Origin: an uncultured Phycisphaeraceae bacterium
GTDB lineage: Bacteria > Planctomycetota > Phycisphaerae > Phycisphaerales > Phycisphaeraceae
Assembly: GCA_964523485.1 (NCBI GenBank)
Contig: CAZFZS010000001.1
Span: 148,466 to 212,465, forward strand
DNA length: 64,000 nt
Direction: 5' to 3'
Position 1 is the stretch's first letter; the number at the start of each line of letters is the position of its first letter. Of the stretch, positions 11,351 through 63,368 are shown piece after piece. Made by a program: the position numbers and the translations under genes. Under the pieces are notes generated by a model that saw nothing but the letters and a program-made list of their open reading frames with translations, was not told the origin of the DNA and did no database searches.

Positions 11351-11391
11351 AAAAAATAAGCCCACGGATTTTCATCCGTGGGCTTATTTTT
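11351..11391. terminator. Bidirectional intrinsic terminator built on a family-A palindrome
   Basis: A-tract-AAGCCCACGGAT-TTTC-ATCCGTGGGCTT-ATTTTT between convergent tsf and the Sel1 gene. Confidence 0.85.
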
Positions 11392-19008: not shown

Positions 19009-20144
19009 GCATTCTCGGCATCGCGAGTCTGATCCTGGCGGCACTTCCCTTCGCGATGATCTGTCGCAACCTCGCTCTCTATCGCAAACCTATCAACGCA
19101 ACGCAGCCGGGGGTGCATGCCCCCGGCCCCGCTCATCCCGCCGTCAGCGTCCTGATCCCCGCTCGCGATGAGGCAGCCAACATCGAGGCTTGCATCCAAT
19201 CCGTGCTCGATGCGGCCGAGGGGGTCGAACTCGAACTGATCGTGCTGGATGATCATTCCACCGATGACACCGCCGCGATCGTCAGCCGACTCTCACAAGC
19301 CGATCCACGCATCCGCCTCGAACACGCCCCCGACTTGCCCCAAGGCTGGGTCGGCAAGCAGCACGCCTGCTGGGTTCTCGCTCAGCGGGCTACGCACGAC
19401 ACCCTCATCTGGATCGATGCCGACGTCCGACTCGCCCCCGGAAGTTTCCCCGGTAGTCTCCACGCCTTGGCCCAACAACTCGCAACCGGCGAGGCCAAGC
19501 TCATCAGCGGCGTGCCCCGCCAAATCACCGGCTCGGCCATGGAACGTTTGATCGTCCCGCAAGTCCTGCTCGTCCTTCTTGGATACCTGCCCATCGACCG
19601 GATGCGGCAGTCCACTCAACCCGGACTCGGCGCGGGTTGTGGCCAACTCTTCGTCGCCGACCGCAAAGCTTATTTTGAGACCGGTGGGCACGAGCAGATC
19701 AAATGGACGATGCACGACGGTGTCGCGCTGCCCCGGTTGTTTCGCCGACATAATTTCCTCACCGACCTGTTTGATGCGACCGAGACGGCGACCTGTCGGA
19801 TGTATGAAGGCACGTCCGCGACTTGGCGGGGATTTATGAAAAACGCGACCGAAGGCATGGCTTCACCGATCGCCATTGTGCCGTGGACCGTGCTGCTAAT
19901 CGGCGGACATGTTTTGCCTTGGGTCCTGATTGCGTGTGGCGTGCTGACCTGGCCGGTGCTGATCGCGTGCGGCTTGAGTTTGGCGATGAGTGTCGCGTTG
20001 GCACTTCGCTTTAAGCAGGGCATCTATGCCGCGGTGCTTCGGCCGATCGGTGTGATGTTGCTGGTGATGCTGCAATGGCAGGCGCTATTCAATCGGTTGC
20101 GTGGCAAGCAGCCGACTTGGCGTGGCCGGGCGATCACGGACTGA
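19005..20144 (+). CDS. crtQ: GT2 glycosyltransferase (CrtQ-like diapocarotenoate glycosyltransferase)
   Basis: VLIPARDE, LDDHSTD, GWVGKQHAC, WIDADV, GCGQ, CRMY; N- and C-terminal TM segments. Confidence 0.82.
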   Translation: MSILGIASLILAALPFAMICRNLALYRKPINATQPGVHAPGPAHPAVSVLIPARDEAANIEACIQSVLDAAEGVELELIVLDDHSTDDTAAIVSRLSQADPRIRLEHAPDLPQGWVGKQHACWVLAQRATHDTLIWIDADVRLAPGSFPGSLHALAQQLATGEAKLISGVPRQITGSAMERLIVPQVLLVLLGYLPIDRMRQSTQPGLGAGCGQLFVADRKAYFETGGHEQIKWTMHDGVALPRLFRRHNFLTDLFDATETATCRMYEGTSATWRGFMKNATEGMASPIAIVPWTVLLIGGHVLPWVLIACGVLTWPVLIACGLSLAMSVALALRFKQGIYAAVLRPIGVMLLVMLQWQALFNRLRGKQPTWRGRAITD

Positions 20145-29188: not shown

Positions 29189-29959
29189 ATGTCCTGTGCG
29201 ATGAGTCCATCCGTTACGACGACGGTTTTGCTGATTACTTTGATGTGGGGCGGGATTGCCTCGGCTCAAATCGCTCTCAATCCCGGAAGCCCCGGTTCCC
29301 CCGGTTCCCCCGTCGACACCAATGTTGCGGATCACGACCCCTTGGCGACGAGCCTTCGGCGGGTCGAGCGGGGTAATGCGCAGTTTTCGTATCAGGCCCG
29401 GATGACTGTGGTCGACTTCGGCGTTGGTTGGCAGAGCGCCGGCCGAACCCAGCGCGACCCCGCGACCGGGTTGCAGCATCATCAGGCTTATCAGTACCGG
29501 GCACCGGGGGTGCGTGCCCTGATTGATCGGCCGGCCTATCTCGACCGGTCGTCGGCCGACGGCCTGCAAGCGACCCTCATCCCCGCCAACACCGTCTTTT
29601 TATTAACGCCGGAGAAACAACGCGAGCCGGATGTCGATCAACCCCTGCCGCCTCCGAGCAATCTGCTCGACACCCGCGTCGACTTCCGCATCGCCCCCGC
29701 CCCCGGAAGTGCCCCCGGAAGTGCCCCCGGAAGTGCCCCCAACATGACTCCGCGCACGCCGTTGACCGCCGAGCAATTGCAGGGTGCCGCATACCCTTCG
29801 CTTATGCAGCCGCCCCGGCCGATCTCCAATGCCCCGCTGATTCAACGACGAAGCAAATCGTCTGAGCCGAGCAACGGGGCGGAGATGATGTCTGACGATC
29901 GTCAATCGGCCTCGCCAGCGGAATCTTCAGTCGAGGAATCATCCGAAGATTCGCCTTGA
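29189..29959 (+). CDS. Secreted Pro-rich hypothetical protein
   Basis: Signal peptide (VLLITLMWGGIASA); GSP and APGS tandem repeats; start 29189 or 29201. Confidence 0.7.
   Translation: MSCAMSPSVTTTVLLITLMWGGIASAQIALNPGSPGSPGSPVDTNVADHDPLATSLRRVERGNAQFSYQARMTVVDFGVGWQSAGRTQRDPATGLQHHQAYQYRAPGVRALIDRPAYLDRSSADGLQATLIPANTVFLLTPEKQREPDVDQPLPPPSNLLDTRVDFRIAPAPGSAPGSAPGSAPNMTPRTPLTAEQLQGAAYPSLMQPPRPISNAPLIQRRSKSSEPSNGAEMMSDDRQSASPAESSVEESSEDSP
29699..29740. repeat. 12-bp tandem repeat (GCCCCCGGAAGT)x3.5, coding APGS
   Basis: Direct reading of the sequence; the unit contains the genome-enriched 11-mer. Confidence 0.95.
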
Positions 29960-33431: not shown

Positions 33432-34067
33432 ATGGATCGCCCCGACACAAAATCAGCACTGCCTGTGATGTTGGATGTGGCGGATTGGCGGTGCGTGGTG
33501 GTCGGGGCTGGGCCGGTCGGGAAGCGGCGGGCGACGAAGCTGGCAGCGGCGGGGGCCAACGTGCTGCTGATCGACCCAGCAGAAGCAAGCGACCTTCCAG
33601 CAGGCATCGAGCATCAGCAAAAACCATTTGCCACCGGCGACCTCGACGGGGCACGGCTGGTCGTCATCGCGACCGGTGATGCCAAGGTGAACGCAAAGGT
33701 TGAGGCAGAGGCGGCCGCGTCGAGGCTGCTCATCAATCGTGCGGATGATGGCGGCGAGGGCGACGTGTCATTTATGGCCAGCGTGACCACGGGGCCGGCC
33801 ACGGTCGCGGTCGACTCCGGTGGCGGGTCGGCCGGCTTGGCCAAGCGAATCAGCCAGCAGTTGGCGGATCAGATTGCCCCGGATGACATTAGGCTTCTGG
33901 AAGCCGCGGCCCGTTGGCGGCCGCGTATCAAAGCGTTGAATTGGCCCGCCCCTCGGCGAGCACAGGCCATTGCCCGGCTGACGGATGACAACGCCCGAGC
34001 TATCCTTGCCCAGCGCGGCCCGGCTGGCCTCGACGCCCACTTGGCCAAGCTGCTATCCGACCCCTGA
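33432..34067 (+). CDS. sirC: Precorrin-2 dehydrogenase / sirohydrochlorin ferrochelatase (SirC/Met8, CysG N-terminal half)
   Basis: LPVMLD, VVVGAGPVGKRRA, LVVIAT, LINRADD, VAVDSGGGS..LAKRI. Confidence 0.88.
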   Translation: MDRPDTKSALPVMLDVADWRCVVVGAGPVGKRRATKLAAAGANVLLIDPAEASDLPAGIEHQQKPFATGDLDGARLVVIATGDAKVNAKVEAEAAASRLLINRADDGGEGDVSFMASVTTGPATVAVDSGGGSAGLAKRISQQLADQIAPDDIRLLEAAARWRPRIKALNWPAPRRAQAIARLTDDNARAILAQRGPAGLDAHLAKLLSDP

Positions 34068-34091: not shown

Positions 34092-35093
34092 ATGAACGAA
34101 CCGCTATTACCAATCGCCCTTTTCGTCCTCACGCTGCTCGCCATCGCGGGCAGTGTGCTGGCCGTGCGTCGGCTGCGGGCGGGGGGGACATCCGGAGATT
34201 CGCAAAGCCTCATCACCGGCTTGGATCAGCAAAGCCATACGGCAACACAGGACGGGCTTGTCCTGCTGAACATGCTCGTGGGCATCATCCTCATGGTCGC
34301 CGCCGGGCTCATCGGCAGCCGATGGATCGAGGCGTATCGGTTCGGCCAAACCTGGTCGCCCGTCACCGCGCACGTCGATGGCTTGCTGCTCATCGCCACG
34401 CTCTGGTCCGCGACGCTGCTCTACCTTCAAAGCCGACCGCGGATGCTGGGGATCAGCGCGTTCGGCCTGCCCATGCTCGCCCTGATCCTCGCTTGGGGCG
34501 TTTGCGCCTCGCTGTGGACCTACCGGCCATTCGATATCCACACCGTTTGGCGATCGGTACACCTGGCCGGGGTCTACCTCGGAACGCTAGGCGCCGCCTT
34601 GGCCGCGATCTCCGGGGCGATGTTTCTATATGCTCAAAAACGGCTGAAGAACAAATCCGACGTTGGTCAAGCGGCCCGCGATCGGCGGGTGCGGATGCCC
34701 AGCCTCGAATCACTTGAACGATTCATCCAGCAGGGCTCGATCATCAGCTTTGCCCTGCTGAGCCTGGGGATCGCGACCGGCGTAGTCATCCTTCTTGAAG
34801 AACAGACCATGGCAAAGGGCTGGTGGTACACGCCCAAGGTCATCCTCGCAGCGGTCTGCTGGGGCGTTTTTGCGGTACTGATCAACATCCGGCAGGCGTC
34901 GAGTTTCCGCGGCCGACGGGCGGCTTGGCTAGCGATCGGCGGGTTCGTGCTGCTGCTGGTGGTCTACGGGTTGGTGACGGCGGGGCCGAGTGATGCTCAA
35001 GAGCGATCCGGGGATTCGCAAAGCCTCATCCCCGGCCCGGAGAAATCGATCGTTCAGGACGTTGTCACTTCCGGGGGTGGGCCATGCGGCTGA
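34092..35093 (+). CDS. CcsA/HemX-family membrane protein
   Basis: About 8 TM helices, conserved His (SVHLAG), PSLESLE, degenerate WWD-like region (WWYTPKVI); immediately upstream of hemA. Confidence 0.8.
   Translation: MNEPLLPIALFVLTLLAIAGSVLAVRRLRAGGTSGDSQSLITGLDQQSHTATQDGLVLLNMLVGIILMVAAGLIGSRWIEAYRFGQTWSPVTAHVDGLLLIATLWSATLLYLQSRPRMLGISAFGLPMLALILAWGVCASLWTYRPFDIHTVWRSVHLAGVYLGTLGAALAAISGAMFLYAQKRLKNKSDVGQAARDRRVRMPSLESLERFIQQGSIISFALLSLGIATGVVILLEEQTMAKGWWYTPKVILAAVCWGVFAVLINIRQASSFRGRRAAWLAIGGFVLLLVVYGLVTAGPSDAQERSGDSQSLIPGPEKSIVQDVVTSGGGPCG
34189..34222 (+). repeat. Family-B 34-bp REP-like element (intragenic, hemX/ccsA)
   Basis: CATCCGGAGATTCGCAAAGCCTCATCACCGGCTT. Confidence 0.85.
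35005..35038 (+). repeat. Family-B 34-bp REP-like element (intragenic, hemX/ccsA C-terminus)
   Basis: GATCCGGGGATTCGCAAAGCCTCATCCCCGGCCC. Confidence 0.9.
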
Positions 35094-36547
35094 TGCTGCT
35101 GGGCATTAACCACCGCACCGCGCCCGTCGAGGTGCGCGAGCGACTCGCATTAGGCGGCGAGCAGTTGGGCCCGACGCTGTCCGCCTGGTGTGAACACTTT
35201 GCCGGGGCCGAGGCGGTGATGCTGAGCACCTGCAACCGCACGGAGCTTTACATCGCCCGACCCCACGAGGCCGAGCCGAGCATCGAACAGGTCCGGGCTT
35301 TCCTCGCGCAGCAGACCGATGCCTCGATCGAGGCGTTGACCGCCGCGTCGGTCCACCGCGAGCAAGGCCCGGCGGTTCATCACCTGCTGCGGGTCACCGC
35401 CGGGTTGGACGCGATGGCCGTCGGCGAATCGCAGGTGCTCGGCCAAGTCAAACGCGCTTATGAATCCGCCCAGCAGGCAGGCACAGCCGGCCCGGTGCTC
35501 AACCGACTCTTCCAACAAGCCCTCGCCGAGGCGAAGCAGGCCCGCCAAGCCAGCGGCATCGACATGCTGCGACATTCCATCAGCTCGATGGCCGTCGACT
35601 TCGCCAGCGATGTGTTCGACTCGTTCGAGGACAAGACGGTCGTCGGCATCGGGGCGGGCGAAATCACAAAGGCGACGCTGCGGCGGATGCTCGAACTGCG
35701 GCCCGGCAAGATGTGGGTGGTCAACCGATCGGCCGACCGGGGGTTGGCGTTGGCGCGGGGGTTGGGGCTGGTGGGCTCGAGTGACGGGGCGCGACCCGCG
35801 GATTCGCAGAGCCTCATCCGCGACTTGGCGAACATTTCCGGAGGCGCGAGGCCTTGGGAGGCGATGGAAGAAGTCCTGGTCGAGGCGGATGTGGTGTTGA
35901 CCGCGACCGGGGCGAGTGAGCCGATCGTCACCGAGGCGGGGTTTGCGAAGTTGATCAAGAGGCGTCGGAATCGGCCGATCTTCATGATCGACATGGCTGT
36001 GCCGCGCGACATCGAGCCAAGCGTCGGTACGCTGCCGAACGTGTATCTCTACAACATCGATGATTTGCAGCAGGCGCTGGACCAATCGCCGCACCGCCGC
36101 GAGTCGATCCAAGCTTGCGAAGACCGGGTGCGGGATGCGGCCGACCGTTGCCTGGGTGCGTTGCAACATCAGGACCTGGGCGTGCTGGTGCGGCAACTGC
36201 GTGGCAAGCTGCTCGCCATCGGTGAGCAGGAACGGGCCCGGACCCGCAAGAAAATGTCCGCCATGCTGCCCGAGTACGTCAGTGCCGACACAGGCGAGGC
36301 GGTCGACCATCGTGACCAAGTCGATGCACTGGGCGCGTTGCTCGATGAGCACACGCACCGGCTGATCAACAAGGTGCTGCACCTGCCGCTGCGTCAGCTC
36401 GGCCCGGAGCAGAAGGATGCCCCGCTGGGTTTCTATGCGGCCGCCTTGCGGAAGCTATTCGATCTCGATGGCATGTCGGGTGAGAGCGGGGAAAAATCAG
36501 CCGCGGATGAAGAGCGCGACGCCGACGTCGGATCGAGTCATGATTAG
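35084..36547 (+). CDS. hemA: Glutamyl-tRNA reductase
   Basis: LGINHRTAPVEVRE, LSTCNRTELY, GLDAMAVGESQVLGQVK, GAGE, VNRS, DMAVPRDIE, LYNIDDL. Confidence 0.98.
   Translation: MRLMLLGINHRTAPVEVRERLALGGEQLGPTLSAWCEHFAGAEAVMLSTCNRTELYIARPHEAEPSIEQVRAFLAQQTDASIEALTAASVHREQGPAVHHLLRVTAGLDAMAVGESQVLGQVKRAYESAQQAGTAGPVLNRLFQQALAEAKQARQASGIDMLRHSISSMAVDFASDVFDSFEDKTVVGIGAGEITKATLRRMLELRPGKMWVVNRSADRGLALARGLGLVGSSDGARPADSQSLIRDLANISGGARPWEAMEEVLVEADVVLTATGASEPIVTEAGFAKLIKRRRNRPIFMIDMAVPRDIEPSVGTLPNVYLYNIDDLQQALDQSPHRRESIQACEDRVRDAADRCLGALQHQDLGVLVRQLRGKLLAIGEQERARTRKKMSAMLPEYVSADTGEAVDHRDQVDALGALLDEHTHRLINKVLHLPLRQLGPEQKDAPLGFYAAALRKLFDLDGMSGESGEKSAADEERDADVGSSHD
35793..35826 (+). repeat. Family-B 34-bp REP-like element (intragenic, hemA)
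   Basis: GACCCGCGGATTCGCAGAGCCTCATCCGCGACTT. Confidence 0.9.
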
Positions 36548-38780
36548 GTCGGCCGACCCACCCCTGGCTGAACCTGAACCGCAAGCGACAACCCAGTCGC
36601 CCAGCAACGCTTGGCCGATGCTTCTGAGCATCATCGTTTCCGCGGCCTTGGCCTGGGTGCTGCTGAGCGGGTTCGGATTGCAGCCCTGGCTTTCGGCACT
36701 GGGCATCGTGGCCGATGCGCTGCCGAGTTTGATCATGCTCTGGGCGGCCGCGGCGGGGATGGGTCAACTCGTTTTTCGACTTGGCTTAATGAGTCGTGAC
36801 GCGATGCCTTGGTCGATCCGGTGTGCGATCGGTCTTATGGCGCTCGGGCTGCTGCTTTACACGTTGGCGTGGACCGTCGCGCTTCACCGCTCGATGGTAA
36901 TGAGCGTCTTGGCGGTCGGTTGGATCATGTTGATCGCGGAAGGTTTCCGAAAGTTGCGCAGGGCCGGGCGGGGTGAGTCGCACCCCACGCTGAGGTCGAT
37001 CCGACAATCGCTCTCGTCAATGAATGCTTTGTGGTTCTCACTTCCGGGGGCGGCGTTGTTGGTGATGGCGGCGTGCTGTCCGCCGGGCACGATTTGGCGG
37101 GTCGAGGCGATGGGCTATGACGTGATGAGCTATCACCTGCAGGTCCCACGCGAGTGGGTCGCGGCAGGTCGGATGCTCGGGCTGGAGCACAACGTCTACA
37201 GCTTTCTTCCGGGCATGATGGAACTGTTTTACGCGGTGCTGATCACGCTGCGTGGCGGCGAGGCAATCGGATCGTTGTATGCGTGTCAGTTGTTTTCGGT
37301 GAGTTTGATGGGGTTGGCCGCGGCGGGGGTAGGGTGTGCGGTGCTTGCCGTGATGCGGCGTGACACTTCCGGGGGTGATCCGCGGATTCGCAAAGCCTCA
37401 TCCGCGGCTTCGGGGGTGATTGGAGGAATAGTTGCAGGGGTTTTTCTATGTGTGCCTTGGGTGTTGGTCACCGGGTCGATGGCGTATCACGAGGCGGGGA
37501 TGCTGGCCTTCGGCATCGCGGCGTTGACGGTGGCGTTGCAGGGTGGCTTGGGTGTGAGACACGCGGCGGTGGTGGGGCTGCTGTTGGGTATGGCGACGCT
37601 GTGTAAACCAACGGCGGGGTTCATGCTCGGCCTGCCGATCGGCGTACTCATACTGCTGCTGGCTTGGCGAAATGCACCATCAGAAAAACGCGTCGGCGTC
37701 ACCTTACGGGTCGCGGCGGTTTGTCTCGCAGTCGGTCTGCTCACGCTCAGCCCGTACCTCGCCCGCAACGCGGCGGCAACGGGCAACCCGTTGTTCCCCT
37801 TCGCGCTGGACCTGCTGGGGCAGGGCCATTGGTCGGACGCCACGGCCGAGCGTTGGCAACTCGCCCACGGCGAGGCCCCCCGGAAGTTGGCCGCGGTGAC
37901 TGCCATCTGGCAGCAAGTCTTAGGCAACACCGGCTACGGCGCAATCGGCGGATCGCCCACCCCGGCCGAGTCCTACAACATCGCGCGCTTCGCCAACCAA
38001 GGCGGCCTGCCTGTGCTGTGGATCACCGTCGCCATCGCATCAGGGCTAGGCCTATTCTCCACGCCCGTATTCAAGCATCAGAAACTTCTGGTACTCGCGA
38101 TGCTCGGTTGGATCGCCTGGCAGGTGTTGTGCTGGTTAGGCCTGACCCATCGCCAGTCGCGGTTCATGATCACGCTGCTGCCGCCCGCGGTCGTGCTGCT
38201 TGGCATCGGATTGGGGACGCTTGCTCATTTCGGCAGACCCGCGAAGGCGGTTGCGCTCGGTTGCGGGGGGCTGGTGATCGTCGCCTTGCTTTGGGTCAGC
38301 TTCTTGACCCTGCAAAATCAGACGACGCCTTTACGTGATGCAGCCGGCAACCCGCTCGGCCCGGCCCCGTTGGGGTTGATCGTCGATGCCCTGCCTACAC
38401 CCCATGGCACGGGTCTGTTGCCCGAACCGATCGTCAACCAACGGCCAATCGGCAGCCCGGTGCTCATCGTCGCGGACAACAGCTCGCTGCTTTACGCCGA
38501 AGCGCCGTTTCACTATGCGAGTGCGTTTGACGAACCTTGGTTGGCCGATGCGATTCAGCGGGCCGAGCAGACCAATACGCCTAGCCGATCGCTCGCCATC
38601 GAACTTCGTGAGCGGGGCATCCGATACGTCTACGTCGGCTATGGCGAACTGAGCCGCCTGCACGCTACCTATGGATTTGACCCCCGCATCACCGAAGCCA
38701 GCCTGCGTACCCTGACCGTCGATTGGCCCCGCGAGTTCGAAAGCCGCGTCGCGGGCTTCTACCGCGTCCCGCAAAACTGA
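36540..38780 (+). CDS. Multi-pass membrane protein, GT-C (ArnT/PMT-like) glycosyltransferase candidate
   Basis: More than 12 TM segments, YDVMSYHLQVP motif, CKPTA, RNAAATGNPLFPF, QSRF; ATG overlaps the hemA stop. Confidence 0.7.
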   Translation: MIRSADPPLAEPEPQATTQSPSNAWPMLLSIIVSAALAWVLLSGFGLQPWLSALGIVADALPSLIMLWAAAAGMGQLVFRLGLMSRDAMPWSIRCAIGLMALGLLLYTLAWTVALHRSMVMSVLAVGWIMLIAEGFRKLRRAGRGESHPTLRSIRQSLSSMNALWFSLPGAALLVMAACCPPGTIWRVEAMGYDVMSYHLQVPREWVAAGRMLGLEHNVYSFLPGMMELFYAVLITLRGGEAIGSLYACQLFSVSLMGLAAAGVGCAVLAVMRRDTSGGDPRIRKASSAASGVIGGIVAGVFLCVPWVLVTGSMAYHEAGMLAFGIAALTVALQGGLGVRHAAVVGLLLGMATLCKPTAGFMLGLPIGVLILLLAWRNAPSEKRVGVTLRVAAVCLAVGLLTLSPYLARNAAATGNPLFPFALDLLGQGHWSDATAERWQLAHGEAPRKLAAVTAIWQQVLGNTGYGAIGGSPTPAESYNIARFANQGGLPVLWITVAIASGLGLFSTPVFKHQKLLVLAMLGWIAWQVLCWLGLTHRQSRFMITLLPPAVVLLGIGLGTLAHFGRPAKAVALGCGGLVIVALLWVSFLTLQNQTTPLRDAAGNPLGPAPLGLIVDALPTPHGTGLLPEPIVNQRPIGSPVLIVADNSSLLYAEAPFHYASAFDEPWLADAIQRAEQTNTPSRSLAIELRERGIRYVYVGYGELSRLHATYGFDPRITEASLRTLTVDWPREFESRVAGFYRVPQN
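37377..37410 (+). repeat. Family-B 34-bp REP-like element (intragenic, GT-C gene)
   Basis: GATCCGCGGATTCGCAAAGCCTCATCCGCGGCTT. Confidence 0.92.
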
Positions 38781-39830: not shown

Positions 39831-39847
39831 ACAGAAAGTCTACCCAA

Positions 39848-39873
39848 AGCCGACGGATCGCCATCCGTCGGCT
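39848..39873. repeat. Family-A palindrome
   Basis: AGCCGACGGAT-CGCC-ATCCGTCGGCT between the small membrane gene and trpD. Confidence 0.88.
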
Positions 39874-39892
39874 GTACGAAGTCAAAACAGAT

Positions 39893-40225: not shown

Positions 40226-40834
40226 TCATGATGGATTCGTTTCCCGCTTCTCTGATTTTCTATTTTTCTTCTCCGTGTCTCCGTGTCTCGGTGTTCTCTG
40301 TGGTTGATTTCGCGGCTCGCGGTAAAGCACGTCGATCATAGCCAGGAGGTTCAGCAGCCCGGCCATGCAGGTAAACAGCGTGCCCTGCTCGTGGGCTCGG
40401 CCCAGCGCTGGTTCAAAGGGCGGCTCATCGACGGGGTCAAAGGATCGGCCGGCCATGAGCTGGTCGGCGACCATCTGATCGCGGTACCAGTCGGCAACGG
40501 TCGACGGGGCGATGAGCATCTGGCCGAGGAACCAGGCCGGCTGATTATTGCGGTCAATTACGGAGATCCCACCGACGAATAATCCGATGAGCCAGAGCGT
40601 GCCGATGCTGATCGCGAGGATGACGGCTCGTTTCTGCTGGCCCAGTAAAAAATGACCCAGCCCCGGCAACACCCATCCCGCGACGGCGGCCGCGAGATGC
40701 CAGGAGGACGGCGAGCCCTCGGGCGAAGCGGTTTCCTTGACGCTATCCGCGTCAGCTTCGGGGGCGGCTTCCGCGGTGAATTCCGGGGGCGGCTGGGTTG
40801 CTTGTTCGGGTTCGGGGTGGGGTGATGGTGTCAC
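40226..40834 (-). CDS. DUF6677-like membrane protein
   Basis: AGWVLPGLGHFLLG...AGLLNLLAMID pattern; acidic Pro-rich N-terminus; 3' end runs into a 9-bp repeat (40271-40303). Confidence 0.65.
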   Translation of the reverse strand: MTPSPHPEPEQATQPPPEFTAEAAPEADADSVKETASPEGSPSSWHLAAAVAGWVLPGLGHFLLGQQKRAVILAISIGTLWLIGLFVGGISVIDRNNQPAWFLGQMLIAPSTVADWYRDQMVADQLMAGRSFDPVDEPPFEPALGRAHEQGTLFTCMAGLLNLLAMIDVLYREPRNQPQRTPRHGDTEKKNRKSEKRETNPS

Positions 40835-40930
40835 GGATCAGCGGTTCGGGCATGGGTTTGTCGGACTATAACGATCGCGCGGGTTATGCTGGGGGGAAAG
40901 AAAAAGTTTGCAAACCGCTCGAATCGACCA

Positions 40931-40958
40931 TTGACAAAATCCATCGGACCGATAGTTT
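40931..40958 (+). promoter_or_regulatory. Putative sigma70 promoter
   Basis: Perfect TTGACA, 16-bp spacer, TAGTTT; upstream of the acidic/basic gene pair. Confidence 0.55.
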
Positions 40959-41049
40959 AAGCGCCAGTTGGCTCAAGCCCGGGAGGCGTGGCGGCCGACA
41001 ACGGTATTTGTTGCTTTACACCAGCGGTTTTATTGGGAGGTTACGACCC

Positions 41050-41313
41050 ATGTTGGCATTCACACCCTTTCGGCAGACCCCCGGATTTCTCCTGGATTCT
41101 GAAGAAGACCCGCGTTGGCCGATGCTGGTCGACGACGACGGCGAATTTGAGGACGACGACTTTCTGGACGATGAAGAGGATGAGGACGACCTCTACGACG
41201 ACGACGATGAAGAAGACGAGGACGACGACTTCTTCGACGACGACGATGATGAAGAGGACGACCTGTTCGACGACGACGAGGACGAAGACCTCTTCGACGA
41301 CGATGACGATTGA
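41050..41313 (+). CDS. Small polyacidic protein (87 aa; 48 of the last 60 residues D/E)
   Basis: GGAGG SD before ATG 41050; synonymous variation (GAC/GAT/GAA/GAG) through the acidic tract supports coding. Confidence 0.75.
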   Translation: MLAFTPFRQTPGFLLDSEEDPRWPMLVDDDGEFEDDDFLDDEEDEDDLYDDDDEEDEDDDFFDDDDDEEDDLFDDDEDEDLFDDDDD

Positions 41314-44647: not shown

Positions 44648-44677
44648 AAAGCCGAGGGATGGCCATCCCTCGGCTTT
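44648..44677. repeat. Family-A palindrome
   Basis: AAAGCCGAGGGAT-GGCC-ATCCCTCGGCTTT (perfect). Confidence 0.92.
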
Positions 44678-47220: not shown

Positions 47221-47233
47221 GCATGCGTCAATA

Positions 47234-47261
47234 AAGCCGGGGGATGGCCATCCCCCGGCTT
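47234..47261. repeat. Family-A palindrome between convergent genes
   Basis: AAGCCGGGGGAT-GGCC-ATCCCCCGGCTT (perfect). Confidence 0.92.
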
Positions 47262-51088: not shown

Positions 51089-51118
51089 AAAGCCGACGGA
51101 TGGCCATCCGTCGGCTTT
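51089..51118. repeat. Family-A palindrome between gmhA and the tRNA-Glu 3' end
   Basis: AAAGCCGACGGAT-GGCC-ATCCGTCGGCTTT (perfect). Confidence 0.92.
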
Positions 51119-51128
51119 GATCAGGCAA

Positions 51129-51201
51129 TACCCCCTACGAGATTTGAACTCGTGTCGCCGCCGTGAGAGGGCGGTGTCCTGGGCCACTAGACGAAGGGGG
51201 C
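51129..51201 (-). tRNA. tRNA-Glu (anticodon CUC)
   Basis: GCCCCCTTCGTCTAGTGGCCCAGGACACCGCCCTCTCACGGCGGCGACACGAGTTCAAATCTCGTAGGGGGTA; full cloverleaf, 73 nt, CCA not encoded. Confidence 0.97.
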
Positions 51202-55298: not shown

Positions 55299-55328
55299 AA
55301 AGCCGAGGGATTGCAATCCCTCGGCTTT
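55299..55328. repeat. Family-A palindrome between convergent genes
   Basis: AAAGCCGAGGGAT-TGCA-ATCCCTCGGCTTT (perfect). Confidence 0.92.
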
Positions 55329-56293: not shown

Positions 56294-56327
56294 GATCCGA
56301 CGATTCGCAAAGCCTAATCGTCGGCTT
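56294..56327 (+). repeat. Family-B 34-bp REP-like element (downstream of ygfZ)
   Basis: GATCCGACGATTCGCAAAGCCTAATCGTCGGCTT. Confidence 0.9.
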
Positions 56328-56337
56328 GAGTTTTTGT

Positions 56338-57570
56338 TTAATCGGCTAGCTCCCGCAGCTGCTCCACCCGCGCTTCGATCAACTGACCCTCGGCCGGCAC
56401 AAGCACCGTTGTGCCCGGCTTGTGTCGGCCCCACCGCATCATCGCAATCGCCACCGCTTTCTGCCCACGCAAGGGCGACGCCGCCGAGCTGGTCACCCCG
56501 CCGATGACCTTCTGCTTGTCGCCCGGCTCGAGCACCTGCGCCCCCGCGACCGGCAGGCCGTCACCGTCCAGCTCCAGCCGAACCAGCAGCTTCTTGGGAT
56601 GACCCAGGCTTTTCATCCGCGCGACGACCTCCTGGCCGAGGTAGCAGCCCTTGGTGAAGCTCACCGCTTCGTCGAGCAGACCGGCCTCGGCGGGCAGCGA
56701 GTCCGTGCCGAAGTCGATGTGATGCATCGGTACGCCCTGCTCAACCCGGACCGTGTTGAACGCCGACCAGCCGATCGGCCGACCCCGCAATGACGCCCGC
56801 CGCCGCTCAGCGAACTCCGCGTCGACCTCCGCATCCGGTTCGTAACCCGCCATGTCGAGCAGGGCTCGATGTACCGCCACCGCATCAGCGCTCGGAACAA
56901 TCAGCCGAACACCCAGCACCGTCCCCAAGTCCCAGCGGTAGGCGGTCGCCTGTACCCGCTCTGCATCGCTGTTTCCCGAAGCAGCGACGGCGATGCCCAC
57001 CACCTGATGATTACCCCGTTCACCCAACGGTGGCGAAGCCTGCTCGGCCTGCGACACCTTGTCCATCAGCCGCAGCGCCGCCGGGCCGAGCAGCCAGAAC
57101 ACGGATCGTTGATCCAGAATTTCAGTCGTCACATCCTCGGTGAACAGCCTGGCATCGATCAGCTCGCGTAGCCAGTCCACGTCGAACAGGTCCGTCTCCA
57201 GCCAGGTCGATGCGTCGCCATGATGAATGATCAGGTCCGCCGCGATGTGGCCCTTTTCGTTGAGCTGCAACCCGCGGACGGTCTGCCCGCCCGTCAGCTT
57301 GTTGATCTCCTGCGTACACAGGCGGTGCAGGTAGTCCTTCACATCGGTCCCGGTCAACTGCAGGATCGTTCGCTGCGGCAGGTGCAGGATGCCGACGTGC
57401 CTTCGGATCGCGGCATACTCCGCCTCGAAGCTGCCCTCCCCAGTGGCATGGCCAAACGACTCGGCCATCTCGATCCGCCGACCATCGCCCAGCTCCGGCC
57501 CCCACGCCATCATCTCCGCCCCGAGACTTTCGAGGTGCCGGGTCATCTCGCTTTGATGCAAACTGTCCAT
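56338..57570 (-). CDS. ygfZ: YgfZ/GcvT-family folate-binding Fe-S cluster repair protein
   Basis: LTGTDVKDYLHRL, SFTKGCYLGQEVVAR signature. Confidence 0.93.
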   Translation of the reverse strand: MDSLHQSEMTRHLESLGAEMMAWGPELGDGRRIEMAESFGHATGEGSFEAEYAAIRRHVGILHLPQRTILQLTGTDVKDYLHRLCTQEINKLTGGQTVRGLQLNEKGHIAADLIIHHGDASTWLETDLFDVDWLRELIDARLFTEDVTTEILDQRSVFWLLGPAALRLMDKVSQAEQASPPLGERGNHQVVGIAVAASGNSDAERVQATAYRWDLGTVLGVRLIVPSADAVAVHRALLDMAGYEPDAEVDAEFAERRRASLRGRPIGWSAFNTVRVEQGVPMHHIDFGTDSLPAEAGLLDEAVSFTKGCYLGQEVVARMKSLGHPKKLLVRLELDGDGLPVAGAQVLEPGDKQKVIGGVTSSAASPLRGQKAVAIAMMRWGRHKPGTTVLVPAEGQLIEARVEQLRELAD

Positions 57571-57594: not shown

Positions 57595-57628
57595 AAGCCG
57601 CGGATGAGGCTCTGTGAATCCGCGGATC
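57595..57628 (-). repeat. Family-B 34-bp REP-like element (upstream of ygfZ, inverted)
   Basis: Reverse complement GATCCGCGGATTCACAGAGCCTCATCCGCGGCTT, 32/34 identical to the 37377 copy. Confidence 0.92.
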
Positions 57629-57707: not shown

Positions 57708-58913
57708 ATGCCAAAGCAAACCATTGCCGATGTCGACCTGAACAGCAAAAAAGTCCTGATGCGTGTCGACTTTAACGTCCCGCTCGATGATGCGGGCAAC
57801 GTCACGGACGACCGCCGCGTCCGCATGGCGGTTCCGACGATCCAGCACGTGCTGGACCACGGCGGGTCGGTCGTGCTGATGAGCCACCTGGGCCGACCCA
57901 AGGGCGAGCCGGACCCGAAGTTCAGCCTCAAGCCCGCGGCCGACAAACTCGCCGAACTGCTCGGCCAGCCGGTCCCGCTGACCGCCGACACCGCCGGCGA
58001 GGCGGCCGACAAGCGGGTGCGTGCGATGGCAGCGGGCGAAGTGGTCTGCCTCGAAAACGTCCGTTTCAACGCCGGCGAAAAGAAAGGCGATGACGAGGCC
58101 TACATCAACGCCCTGGCCGACTTGGGCGATGTCTACTGCAATAACGCCTTCGGCACGTGTCACCGCACCGAAGCCTCGATGTATGCCGTGCCAAAAAAGA
58201 TGAAAGAGCAGGGCAAGCCGGCCGTCGTGGGCTTCCTCGTCGAGAAGGAAATCCAGTACCTGACGGACACGATCCAGTCGCCGCAGCGGCCGTTCATCGC
58301 GATCTTGGGTGGGGCCAAGGTCAGCGACAAGATCAACGTCATCGACAACCTGCTGGGCATCTGCGACAAGGTCCTGATCGGCGGGGCGATGGCGTACACC
58401 TTCAGCCTGGCCCAGGGCGGCAAGGTCGGCGGCTCGCTCGTTGAACCGGACAAGACCGACTTGGCGAAAGAGTTGATCGAAAAGGGTGGGGAGAAATTGG
58501 TGCTGCCGACCGATACGCACGCCGGGGATGACTTCTCGGGTGATTGCAACAAGCAGGTGGTGCAGTCCGGCGAGATCCCGGATGGTTACGAGGGCTTGGA
58601 CATCGGCCCGGAGACCGCCAAGCATTACGCTTCGCTGATCAAGGACGCCAAAACTGTGGTCTGGAACGGCCCGATGGGCGTCTTCGAGATGCCGCCGTTC
58701 GACCACGGGACAAAAGCCGTCGCCCAGGCCATCGCCGAGGCGACTTCTTCCGGGGGCGCGACGACGATCATCGGCGGGGGCGACTCGGCCGCGGCCATCG
58801 AGCAGATGGGCCTGGCCGATCAGGTCAGCCACGTCAGCACCGGCGGCGGGGCCAGCCTCGAAATGCTCGAAGGCAAATCCTTCGCCAGCGTCGATTTGCT
58901 GGATGACAAATAA
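57708..58913 (+). CDS. pgk: Phosphoglycerate kinase
   Basis: [52 protein letters not shown]; AGGAG SD. Confidence 0.99.
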
Positions 58914-60831: not shown

Positions 60832-63368
60832 GTAGCACCCCCTTGCCAGCGGGTCAGTCGAGCGACGGCGTGGCTGAGCACGGTCAGCGAGCTGATCGGC
60901 ATCAGGATCGCCGCCAGCCAGGGCGAGATCAGCCCGGCTGCGGCGAGGCTGACCGCCAAGGCGTTATAGCCCAGCGACAGCACGAGGTTGCGTCGGATAA
61001 GTTGCACCGTAAATCGGCTCAGGCGGATCAGTTCGGTCAGCGGGGCCAGGCCCGGCCGAGCGGTGTAGACATCGGCGACTGCCATCGCGGCCTCGACCCC
61101 ACCCTTCACCGCGATCCCGACGTCCGCTGCCGCCAGGGCTGCGGTGTCGTTGACGCCATCGCCGACCATGATGATGCGTCGGCCGTCGCCGCGGTATTGC
61201 CGAACCAACACCGGCTTGTCCTCTGGGGCGAGTTGGGCGTGGCCATCCTGCGTGGCGATGCCGACGGACGCGGCGACATGGCGGACCGCCTCGGCCGAGT
61301 CACCGGAGAAGATGACGGGCTGCCAACCGGAGGTGCGGAGTTCTGCGACCGCCTCGGCACTGCCGATCTGCAGCGTGTCCTGCAACACCGCGAATGCGCT
61401 GACCTCGTGTTGCCATGCAACCCAGACCACCGAAGCGCCCTGAGCGGTGAACGCTTTGGCCTGTCGTTGCCAAGCTTCGCTCAACGCGATGCCTTGTTCC
61501 ACCAGAAAGCGGTCATTGCCAAGATGCAAAACTTGCTCATCGTTCGTGGCGGTCAGCCCGCCGCGGGGGTCTTCGACGATTTGCGTGAATGGATTTGCCT
61601 GGCCGGGTGATGATTGACCGTAGGTATCGTGCAGCGCTTGGCCGACAGGGTGGGTCGCGTCTTGCTCAGCGAGACCCACGAGCGGTTGCAGGGCGGGGTC
61701 GCCGACCCAGTCGGTGACACGGAGTTGGCCGGCGGTGATGGTGCCGGTCTTGTCGAGGGCGAGGATGCCGGTTGTTTGATCTTTGGAATGAGCGTGGCCG
61801 AGCTTCTCGAACACGGCGGCGTCTTTGACGAGGATGTCACGGCGGGCCGCGACGCCGACACTCATCGCGAGGGTCAGCGGGGTGGCCAGGCCCAGTGCGC
61901 AGGGACAGGCGACAATGAGCAAGGCGACCGCGTGGCTGATTGCGGGTTCCGGACCGGCCGCCCACCACCAGCCGGCGAGTACCGCCCCGGCCAAACCCAA
62001 AACGGCCAACGTAAACCACCCCGCGATGCGGTCGGCGAGCCGCACGATCGCGGGCTTGTGTTGCACATCGGCCGACGCTTCCTCCATGAGTCGCGACAGG
62101 CGGGTGGCCGGTCCGACGGCTTGAACGGTGATTTCGATGGCCGGGCCGACGTTGCGTGTGCCGGCAAAAACCGCGTCGCCTTCCCCGACCGCGGTGGGCA
62201 GGGCTTCGCCGGTGAGCGAGGCGGTGTCGAGATGGGTTTGGCCATGCAACACAAAGCCATCCACCGACAGCCGTTGGTTGCTCGGGATGCGGACGCGGTC
62301 CCCCGGCACGACCGCTTCGATGGGCAAGTTGACCCATGTGTCACCCCGCCAAACCGTGCAGCCGACAGGCGTGAGCGATTGCATCAGCGTGACGGAATCC
62401 ACCGCATGACGCTGCTGCCGCATTTGTAGATACCTGCCGACCAGTAGCAGAAACACGAGCACGCACAGCGAATCGAAATAGATCTCGCCCCGTCCGGTGA
62501 TGACGTTGACCAGCCCCGCCACCCCGCCGACGCCGAGCGCTAAAGCGATGGGCAGGTCGAGTGTGACGCTGCGGGTTTTCAAGCCCGCCCACGCCCCGCG
62601 AAAGAAAAGTGACCCCGGCCAGGCGAGGGCGATGATGCCGACGATAACGCTGATGAGGCGGAAGAAGTTTTCGTACTCGGCGGCCATCGCGTCGAGCAGA
62701 CCGAGGTAGAGCGCGGTCGCCAGCAGCATGGCGTTGCCGGCACACGCCCCGGCGATGCCGATGCGGACCAGCATGTCGCGCTCGTTCTGCAGACGGACTT
62801 CACGGGCAGTGCGATCCCCAGCCGGGTGCGGCGGGTAGCCGAGCCGATGCAGCGTCAAGGCCACTTTAGAAAATGAGACTTGGTCTGGGTCCCATGTGAC
62901 ACGGGCGACGCTTTGGCGGAGGCTGAGCCGGGCCTCGACAACGCCGGGGCAGACGCGAGGCAGTTTTTCGATCAGCCAGAGGCAGGCGGCGCAGTGGACG
63001 TTGCTGAGCCGGAGGTCCGCCTGCCGCAGCCCGGTGGGCAGCAGGGATGTGTGTGCGTCGAGGAATTCGGCCTCGTCGTAGGGCCGGTACCCGCTGTCGG
63101 ATTCGGTCGCGTCGGACGGTCCGATGGGCGGGGCGGTTTGGCCGAGCGTTTTGCGGAGCTCGTAATATCGGCTGAGGTCGCAGCCATGGATCATGCGATA
63201 CACCGCGGCACAGCCGTTGCAGCAGAACTGCTCATCCGCCCCCGGGATGATCAAGCCGTCGGGGACCGGTAAATCGCAGTGGCTGCAGGTTGCTGAGTCC
63301 GGGGTCGTGTCAGCTTCTTTCGGTAAAGCAACTTCCGAGGGTGGCGGCGTTGGAGCAAGGGTGGTCAC
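60822..63368 (-). CDS. ccoI: Cu-translocating P1B-ATPase for cbb3 oxidase maturation (CcoI/FixI)
   Basis: N-terminal CSHC..FCCNGC, HCAAC HMA motif, [24 protein letters not shown]; ccoS downstream. Confidence 0.95.

Follow-up and report, generated by a model that had tools for sequence, protein, structure and literature searches.

We describe a short hairpin repeat that occurs six times in a 64-kb stretch of DNA from an uncultured Phycisphaeraceae bacterium (hereafter the window) and lies in frame within three consecutive genes of a haem operon. The window is part of the 394-kb contig Ga0450804_2477403 of the Joint Genome Institute (JGI), assembled from a microbial-mat metagenome. The repeat very likely represents a repetitive extragenic palindromic (REP) family of Phycisphaerae, most likely spread by a REP-associated tyrosine transposase (RAYT), whose genic copies survive in permissive sites. 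It forms a hairpin with a covarying stem, flanks a transposase gene in related organisms, is absent from orthologous operons and occupies loops of the encoded proteins. An earlier interpretation, made from the letters alone (the sequence-only reading), had proposed four in-frame sense copies in this operon. Our analysis confirmed them at those places, two in a hemX-like gene, one in hemA and one in a large membrane-protein gene, all in sense orientation and with open frames.

Copies and hairpin structure of the repeat

The unit spans about 33 nt and follows the pattern (G)AYCC-NNN-GAT / TCGCARAGCCTC / ATC-NNN-GG-CTT. Its bounds were set from element edges in contigs of three public runs and from an alignment of all copies. 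The 18-nt core GATTCRCARAGCCTMATC matched the window six times against 0.33 matches expected from shuffles. A covariance-model scan of the window gave six copies only, at 52-57 bits, all of them singlets. In contigs of the source metagenome, depth rises sharply and many ends hang loose precisely at the element borders, in keeping with a repeat present many times in the genome. A seventh match at 62013-62061 (22.7 bits) was rejected, as the other strand there codes for a conserved P-type ATPase segment. Rfam held no family for the element at gathering or permissive thresholds. The GC skew of the window was too weak for replication-strand assignment.

Copy 1 (34190..34222, plus strand, ATCCGGAGATTCGCAAAGCCTCATCACCGGCTT) belongs to the hemX-like gene and encodes GDSQSLI within TSGDSQSLITG, in the loop that links the first two transmembrane helices (TM1 and TM2). 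Its stem carries one A.A mismatch, and the copy is followed by a partial degenerate repeat, GGATCAGCAAAGCC. Copy 2 (35006..35038, plus strand) falls in the C-terminal tail of the same protein, reads RSGDSQSLIPG and has a perfect 8-bp stem. Copy 3 (35794..35826, plus strand) contributes the peptide GARPADSQSLIRDLANISGGARP, including ADSQSLIRD, to HemA. Copy 4 (37378..37410, plus strand), also with a perfect stem, occupies an inter-helix loop of the membrane protein and is read in a different frame as GGDPRIRKASSAASG, giving DPRIRKASSAA. An example of the predicted sequence across an insert junction is ...GARPADSQSLIRDLANISGGARPWE.... The remaining two copies are intergenic. Copy 5 (56295..56327, plus strand) lies about 10 nt past the stop of a minus-strand gene (56338..57570), and copy 6 (57595..57627, minus strand) lies in the divergent region between that gene and pgk (57708..58913, plus strand). 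The clustering that had been suspected in the operon is supported, with four of the six copies inside 3.2 kb (chance P = 0.007 by simulation).

Covariation was assessed on 33 distinct copies aligned from the window and other genomes. The 8-bp stem (CC-NNN-GAT / ATC-NNN-GG) was paired in 95.5% of cells. Each of its three central pairs occurred as three to four Watson-Crick types, and the variation was compensated. Double-sided stem changes numbered 39 against 13.3 in shuffles, with 0 of 500 shuffles reaching 39, and the covariation score of 0.385 dropped to 0.09 or less when partner columns were slid. No part of the unit is better conserved than the 12-nt loop. In the window, the hairpin was the minimum-energy DNA fold in five of the six copies (-8.3 to -9.4 kcal/mol), and the stems of copies 1 and 3 are degraded. 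Many relatives have a 3' tail of CGTG or CGTC, whereas the window and Ga0163150 share the tail CTT (CTTG); a GTAG tag is absent. One related repeat (L156) has loop-adjacent stem bases changed with compensation, from GAT/ATC to GGC/GCC, while keeping the loop.

These properties bear on the idea that several proteins acquired DSQSLI independently under selection, as a motif at the protein level. The hexapeptide does appear three times in two proteins. However, the fourth genic copy uses a different frame and two copies stand between genes. The copies have at least 18 nt in common, third codon positions among them, their arms form a palindrome, and a nadE copy in a relative is antisense (DEALRI). 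Since the repeat uses two reading frames and also stands between genes, it is not a protein motif, and that idea can be regarded as refuted, with virtually no probability left to it.

No target-site duplications were supported at the window copies (local alignment of flanks against shuffles, P = 0.23-0.95). Among other copies, the same flank test gave P < 0.05 in 12.7% of 126, partly due to arrays, so direct repeats are not general in the family. The near-direct repeats previously seen around copy 4 do exist, as a 10-nt sequence, CGGGGGTGAT, abuts both ends, but this is the sole window copy with an abutting repeat. Likewise, the GARP..GARP pair reported in hemA is present but does not abut the element.

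In-frame copies in the haem operon

The gene order of the operon is kept in four relatives, including Algisphaera agarilytica, and none of the four has a REP copy in the 13-kb orthologous region. Their proteins are shorter than those of the window at three of the four genic sites. In HemA, the copy stands at a linker of clade-variable length, where the window protein exceeds the commonest length by 14 aa. Compared with the glutamyl-tRNA reductase (GluTR) structures 1GPJ and 4N7R, HemA residues 229-252 form a clean 24-aa insertion, which includes copy 3, between the alpha-B helix and the beta-3 strand of the NADPH domain. The AlphaFold model of HemA has a mean predicted local distance difference test (pLDDT) score of 83.6. 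Residues 231-250 score only 55-58 against 92-97 in the flanks, and the segment has no secondary structure. Mapping on a predicted structure, suggested beforehand as a check, placed the HemA insert in this low-confidence loop. The REP-coded segment is predicted to form a surface loop of the NADPH-binding (Rossmann) domain, albeit with low confidence in the model. The REP-coded peptide was found in 0 of 120 HemA homologues.

The other genic copies are all in predicted loops or a tail. The membrane protein has 15+3 residues more than its orthologues between two predicted TM helices. The hemX-like protein carries a 32-aa C-terminal extension around copy 2 that is without counterpart in the four orthologues examined. 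In all four relatives the hemX stop overlaps the hemA ATG; in the window, the open reading frame (ORF) runs across the insert without interruption and ends 8 nt past the hemA ATG. A peptide search with a REP-coded 50-mer returned five tiny ORFs and nothing else. At the hemX/hemA junction, the segments 34953-34990 (VYGLVTAGPSD) and 35052-35083 (VQDVVTSGGGP) both resemble the 3' end of hemX in orthologues (VYGIVTSGGPD, then stop), and the heptamer TGATGCT is found twice, at 34996 and, 96 nt further on, at 35092. A duplication of this junction around copy 2 is possible (region 34953-35098).

We propose that a RAYT-type Y1/HUH enzyme would recognise the hairpin, copy it as single-stranded DNA and insert it without target duplication. 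Selection would then remove nearly all genic insertions, and the survivors would be those in loops, tails and linkers. The permissive sites of the operon would be the TM1-TM2 loop, the C-terminal tail, the length-variable HemA Rossmann surface loop and the inter-helix loop of the membrane protein. The four operon copies would have survived because 33 nt equals 11 codons, the sense frames are free of stops and the sites are permissive. Reading the unit shows stop codons to be absent from five of its six frames, including all three sense frames. The inserts would be translated, as the open frames imply, and are presumably neutral. If translated, they would contribute 11 to 32 residues, either as additional or as replacement sequence.

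An assembly artefact, with metagenome contigs misjoined through the short repeat, is extremely unlikely. Short-k Logan contigs do break at copies 2, 3 and 4, and repeat-induced chimeric joints are present. Yet gene order and the frames flanking every copy match the orthologous operon of the four relatives, two independent JGI samples are 100% identical over 5.4 kb spanning all four copies, and one Logan contig crosses copy 1 without difference. The contigs of three DNA runs contained no allele without an element.

A different possibility is that the four sense hairpins were co-opted as cis-acting RNA or DNA signals of the tetrapyrrole operon (processing, stability, pausing or protein binding) and are kept by selection. 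The significant clustering of the copies, the sense orientation of all four genic ones, the perfect stems of two coding copies and an intragenic share far above that of a related organism fit this possibility. So does the hemX ORF, which is open through the whole insert and thereby keeps the overlap with the hemA start. Against it, the stems of copies 1 and 3 have decayed, the operon of relatives runs without any copy, HemA homologues lack the peptide and Rfam offers no match. We consider co-option unlikely.

The conserved operon comprises four genes on the plus strand. It starts with an NAD_binding_7 gene (sirohaem-synthase-like, cysG-like; 33432..34067, plus strand). The hemX/ccsA-like gene (34092..35093, plus strand; Pfam Cytochrom_C_asm) encodes 333 aa compared with 288-294 aa in orthologues, with TM1 predicted at residues 5-23 and TM2 at residues 56-74. 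The hemA gene for glutamyl-tRNA reductase (35084..36547, plus strand) encodes 487 aa with all three Pfam domains present and the STCNRTE catalytic motif conserved; its nearest homologues are from Phycisphaerae (Algisphaera-like), at identities of 64% or less. The polytopic membrane protein (36618..38780, plus strand; 720 aa) is conserved and syntenic in relatives, matched no Pfam family, and its earlier 'GT-C' label is unverified.

A RAYT-like transposase and related repeats in other Phycisphaerae

The link to a transposase comes from relatives. REP copies lie on both sides of a Y1/HUH (RAYT-like) gene of 177-190 aa in at least five related contigs (L130, L139, L044, L065 and L156). At L044, two copies bracket an ORF of 196 aa that carries an HVH motif as well as a C-terminal tyrosine, and at L130 and L139 an inverted REP doublet stands on each side of the gene. 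A truncated RAYT-like homologue adjoins a REP copy at L035. Within the family, neither the HUH histidines nor the tyrosine varies. A profile of the family matched the IS200/IS605 TnpA crystal structures in the PDB (E ~4e-4); the match from a single-sequence PDB search was spurious and was discarded. Homologues numbered 166, mostly from Planctomycetota, and many are named RayT by JGI. The protein is a putative distant member of the REP transposase family. REP variant and transposase lineage change together at L156. Such an enzyme presumably moves the element, and the source genome probably carries a RAYT of its own. Two homologues considered as the window organism's own gene were both from other samples. 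A genome labelled as the acidobacterium Vicinamibacteraceae PLA1 (WYBR01) contains the same REP type (L007, L009, L011, L023, L031, L044, L049, L050, L061, L074, L079 and L080) together with a RAYT-like protein that shares 73% identity with its counterpart in a Phycisphaerales metagenome-assembled genome (MAG). Its taxonomic label or binning may be wrong.

The 18-nt core is present in dozens of copies in several Phycisphaerae MAGs (scan of one genome per species), where its commonest stems are CCCACGAT/ATCGTGGG, followed by CGTG. The window's own subtype (CTTG tail; ATCCGNNGAT-type) reached about 50 copies in one other organism in a metagenome scan. Head-to-tail intergenic arrays with periods of 33, 34 and 38 nt were found at L054 (608-724), L068 (1887-1972), L089 (731-900) and L019 (7344-7394). 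Apart from those beside the RAYT genes of L130 and L139, an inverted doublet lies upstream of miaB in L131. Intergenic copies that could be classified, mostly from the related organism, comprised 31 in tandem, 11 in convergent and 3 in divergent settings (n = 45).

Coding copies recur in these relatives. The pheT gene of L037 contains two tandem in-frame units, TPRDSQSLIVGVNAPRDSQSPFAGV, before the B3_4 domain of PheT, with a 39-nt period that is a multiple of three, and three to four units occupy the same place in L032. In L098, nadE holds one antisense in-frame copy, DAGDEALRISGSP, in the linker that connects its CN_hydrolase domain to its NAD_synthase domain. Survival at linkers within coding sequence is thus a recurring though rare property of this REP family. 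Apparent intragenic calls at the 5' ends of genes in L127, L131, L140 and L153 were rejected as probable start-codon over-extension, L140 being ambiguous. A broader proposal would have the hairpins recruited in the haem operon as signals or evolvable linker modules, RAYT acting as a regular source of new peptides (hemA, pheT and nadE) and the loop serving as a cross-genus recognition code; this is a speculative scheme to which we give little credence.

The MAG 5N602 of Phycisphaerales (JASGKR010000001.1) presents the core in another form. There it is part of a larger element of ~150-230 nt with at least 10 copies (L002, L004, L008, L014, L024, L042, L051, L071, L083 and L095), terminal inverted repeats of ~30 bp, GTCAGAGCCCGAAGCGTCAGCGAGGGAGGC, and an inverted second copy of the core. 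From its layout, this element looks like a miniature inverted-repeat transposable element (MITE) built on the REP loop.

The conservation of the loop also invites a reading without transposition, in which a non-mobile signal (a motif that binds a protein or resembles an uptake signal) is propagated through recombination or gene conversion and the adjoining transposase is coincidental. Uptake sequences occur in coding regions and pair up as terminators, and both habits would suit such a signal. Between genera the stems differ but the 12-nt loop is kept, and no target-site duplications were seen. On the other hand, hairpin covariation is foreign to uptake sequences, the Y1 transposase gene is bracketed by copies in at least five independent contigs, the REP variant tracks the transposase lineage (L156) and tandem arrays exist. 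A non-mobile signal is very unlikely on this evidence.

Several observations weigh against a RAYT-spread REP family with genic copies surviving in permissive sites. The protein matches Pfam Y1_Tnp with E = 2e-4, but its 21.9 bits lie below the cut-off of 23. Six of seven members match NCBIfam REP_Tyr_transpos (best E = 5e-9), but none scores above 31.7 bits where the cut-off is 80, and the profile matched E. coli TnpA-REP (4ER8) weakly (E = 0.24). A RAYT gene was not found in the 64-kb window. Doublets (REPINs) are regarded as the unit that moves, whereas every copy in the window stands singly. The organism with the most similar subtype has about 49 copies, all intergenic, compared with which the four of six intragenic copies of the window are unusual (Fisher P = 4e-5). 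Simple neutral survival is insufficient because of this difference in intragenic share (4/6 versus 0/~49). The clustering and uniform sense orientation of the genic copies are likewise beyond what this explanation accounts for.

The first hemX site is a further point of this kind. The TM1-TM2 loop measures 29 aa in the window and 21-28 aa in relatives, giving no clear net gain. Copy 1 and the partial second copy appear, from the alignment, to have replaced loop sequence there. The sequence-only reading held that all four copies add new peptide and named equal-length segments in orthologues as an outcome that would speak against it. Lengths proved unequal at three sites, where the claim of added peptide stands, and nearly equal at the first hemX site, where replacement fits instead.

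Comparison with known repeat systems

REPs and REPINs with associated RAYTs have been described with GTAG and CGTC tags (Di Nocera et al. 2013, PMC3733652; Bertels & Rainey 2011, PMC3116915). The present family shares with them an imperfect palindrome of 20-40 nt in many copies, a mostly intergenic location, true of the related organism though not of the window, with few copies between divergent genes (3/45, mostly from the related organism), and inverted doublets that bracket a Y1/HUH transposase gene (relatives L130 and L139). It differs in lacking a GTAG head, with a tail of CTT in the window and CGTG/CGTC in relatives, and in its loop of 12 nt, the most conserved part, as opposed to 4-5 nt in the described CGTC families. 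Its Phycisphaerae host lies outside the previously covered phylum/class, and the window copies are all singlets, four of the six intragenic. A REP-flanked transposase gene is the arrangement that defines REP/RAYT systems (PMC3116915, PMC3733652). The repeat fits best as a new REP/RAYT family, marked by the absence of a GTAG head, by its CGTG/CGTC/CTTG tail and by a conserved loop of unusual length. The kind of system is not new, and intragenic REPs in housekeeping genes are already on record, with occasional in-frame cases in O. terrae and R. conorii (PMC3733652).

Class 3 TnpA-Y1 'REPtron-like' loci of Planctomycetes and Acidobacteria encode a Y1 HUH protein of ~178 aa and have atypical hairpins, possibly in high copy (Quentin et al. 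2018, PMC6006769). A planctomycete Y1 HUH protein of similar size, flanked by high-copy hairpins, is common to both. The tyrosine motif here is YI[LA][DR]H or YVVQH instead of the published YV[VI]xEQ, and the published CnGA foot is not evident. IS200/IS605 elements and their MITE derivatives are alike in the HUH/Y1 fold, the subterminal hairpins and the lack of target duplication. Unlike IS200/IS605, our element is a bare 33-nt hairpin with the transposase gene outside the repeated unit, no TnpB and no terminal inverted repeats. The 33-nt unit also lacks the features of a MITE, namely terminal inverted repeats of an insertion sequence, a length of 70-300 bp and target-site duplications.

The palindromic elements of Rickettsia had been offered as the analogue of this repeat. 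Both are palindromic repeats that stand in frame in functional-looking genes, supply surface-loop peptides and enter several unrelated essential genes. The view of a DNA repeat that invades coding sequence and behaves in this way is borne out by the two frames, the intergenic copies, the covarying hairpin, the shorter orthologues at three of four sites and the pheT and nadE copies. The Phycisphaerae repeat differs in its presumably unrelated sequence, its free-living host, the GC-rich genome of that host and an identifiable transposase gene in relatives. Rickettsia palindromic insertions are much longer than 33 nt (11 aa). The likeness is one of behaviour and probably not of shared family, size and host phylum setting the two apart, and the analogy needs to be narrowed to a REP family associated with a RAYT-type transposase.

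Our results extend REP/RAYT systems to Phycisphaerae with a definable structure, a conserved 12-nt loop on a covarying stem. They indicate that hairpin repeats of very small size can survive in frame within core enzymes of a free-living bacterium, here glutamyl-tRNA reductase and, in relatives, PheT and NadE. During annotation, such inserts may resemble frameshifts or odd low-complexity loops. The copies offer material for studying how proteins gain linker sequence and for choosing substrates in tests of hairpin recognition by RAYT.

The window contains other repeats. A second hairpin family, AAAGCCGNNGGAT-GGCC-ATCCNNCGGCTTT, with covarying NN, stands at the 3' ends of genes or tRNAs (11357-11385, 39846-39874, 44648-44676, 47233-47261, 51089-51117 and 55299-55327). 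One copy lies just downstream of a tRNA (51129-51201), and another, at 55299, between convergent genes. These hairpins look like bidirectional terminators. They have CCGNNGGAT/ATCCNNCGGCTT arms in common with the REP family and are possibly related to it in evolution.

An 11-mer, ACTTCCGGGGG, occurs nine times against 0.01 expected, at 19435, 23681, 29700-29734 (three tandem 12-mers), 35067, 37040, 37365 and 37877. Two of these occurrences adjoin REP copies 2 and 4. At 37040 and 37877 it codes for conserved residues, and the orthologues show no indel there; insertion of an element alone therefore does not account for the motif. Finally, the ORF at 40798-41313 ends in a long Asp/Glu-rich low-complexity tract made of GACGAC/GAAGAG repeats (41130-41303).

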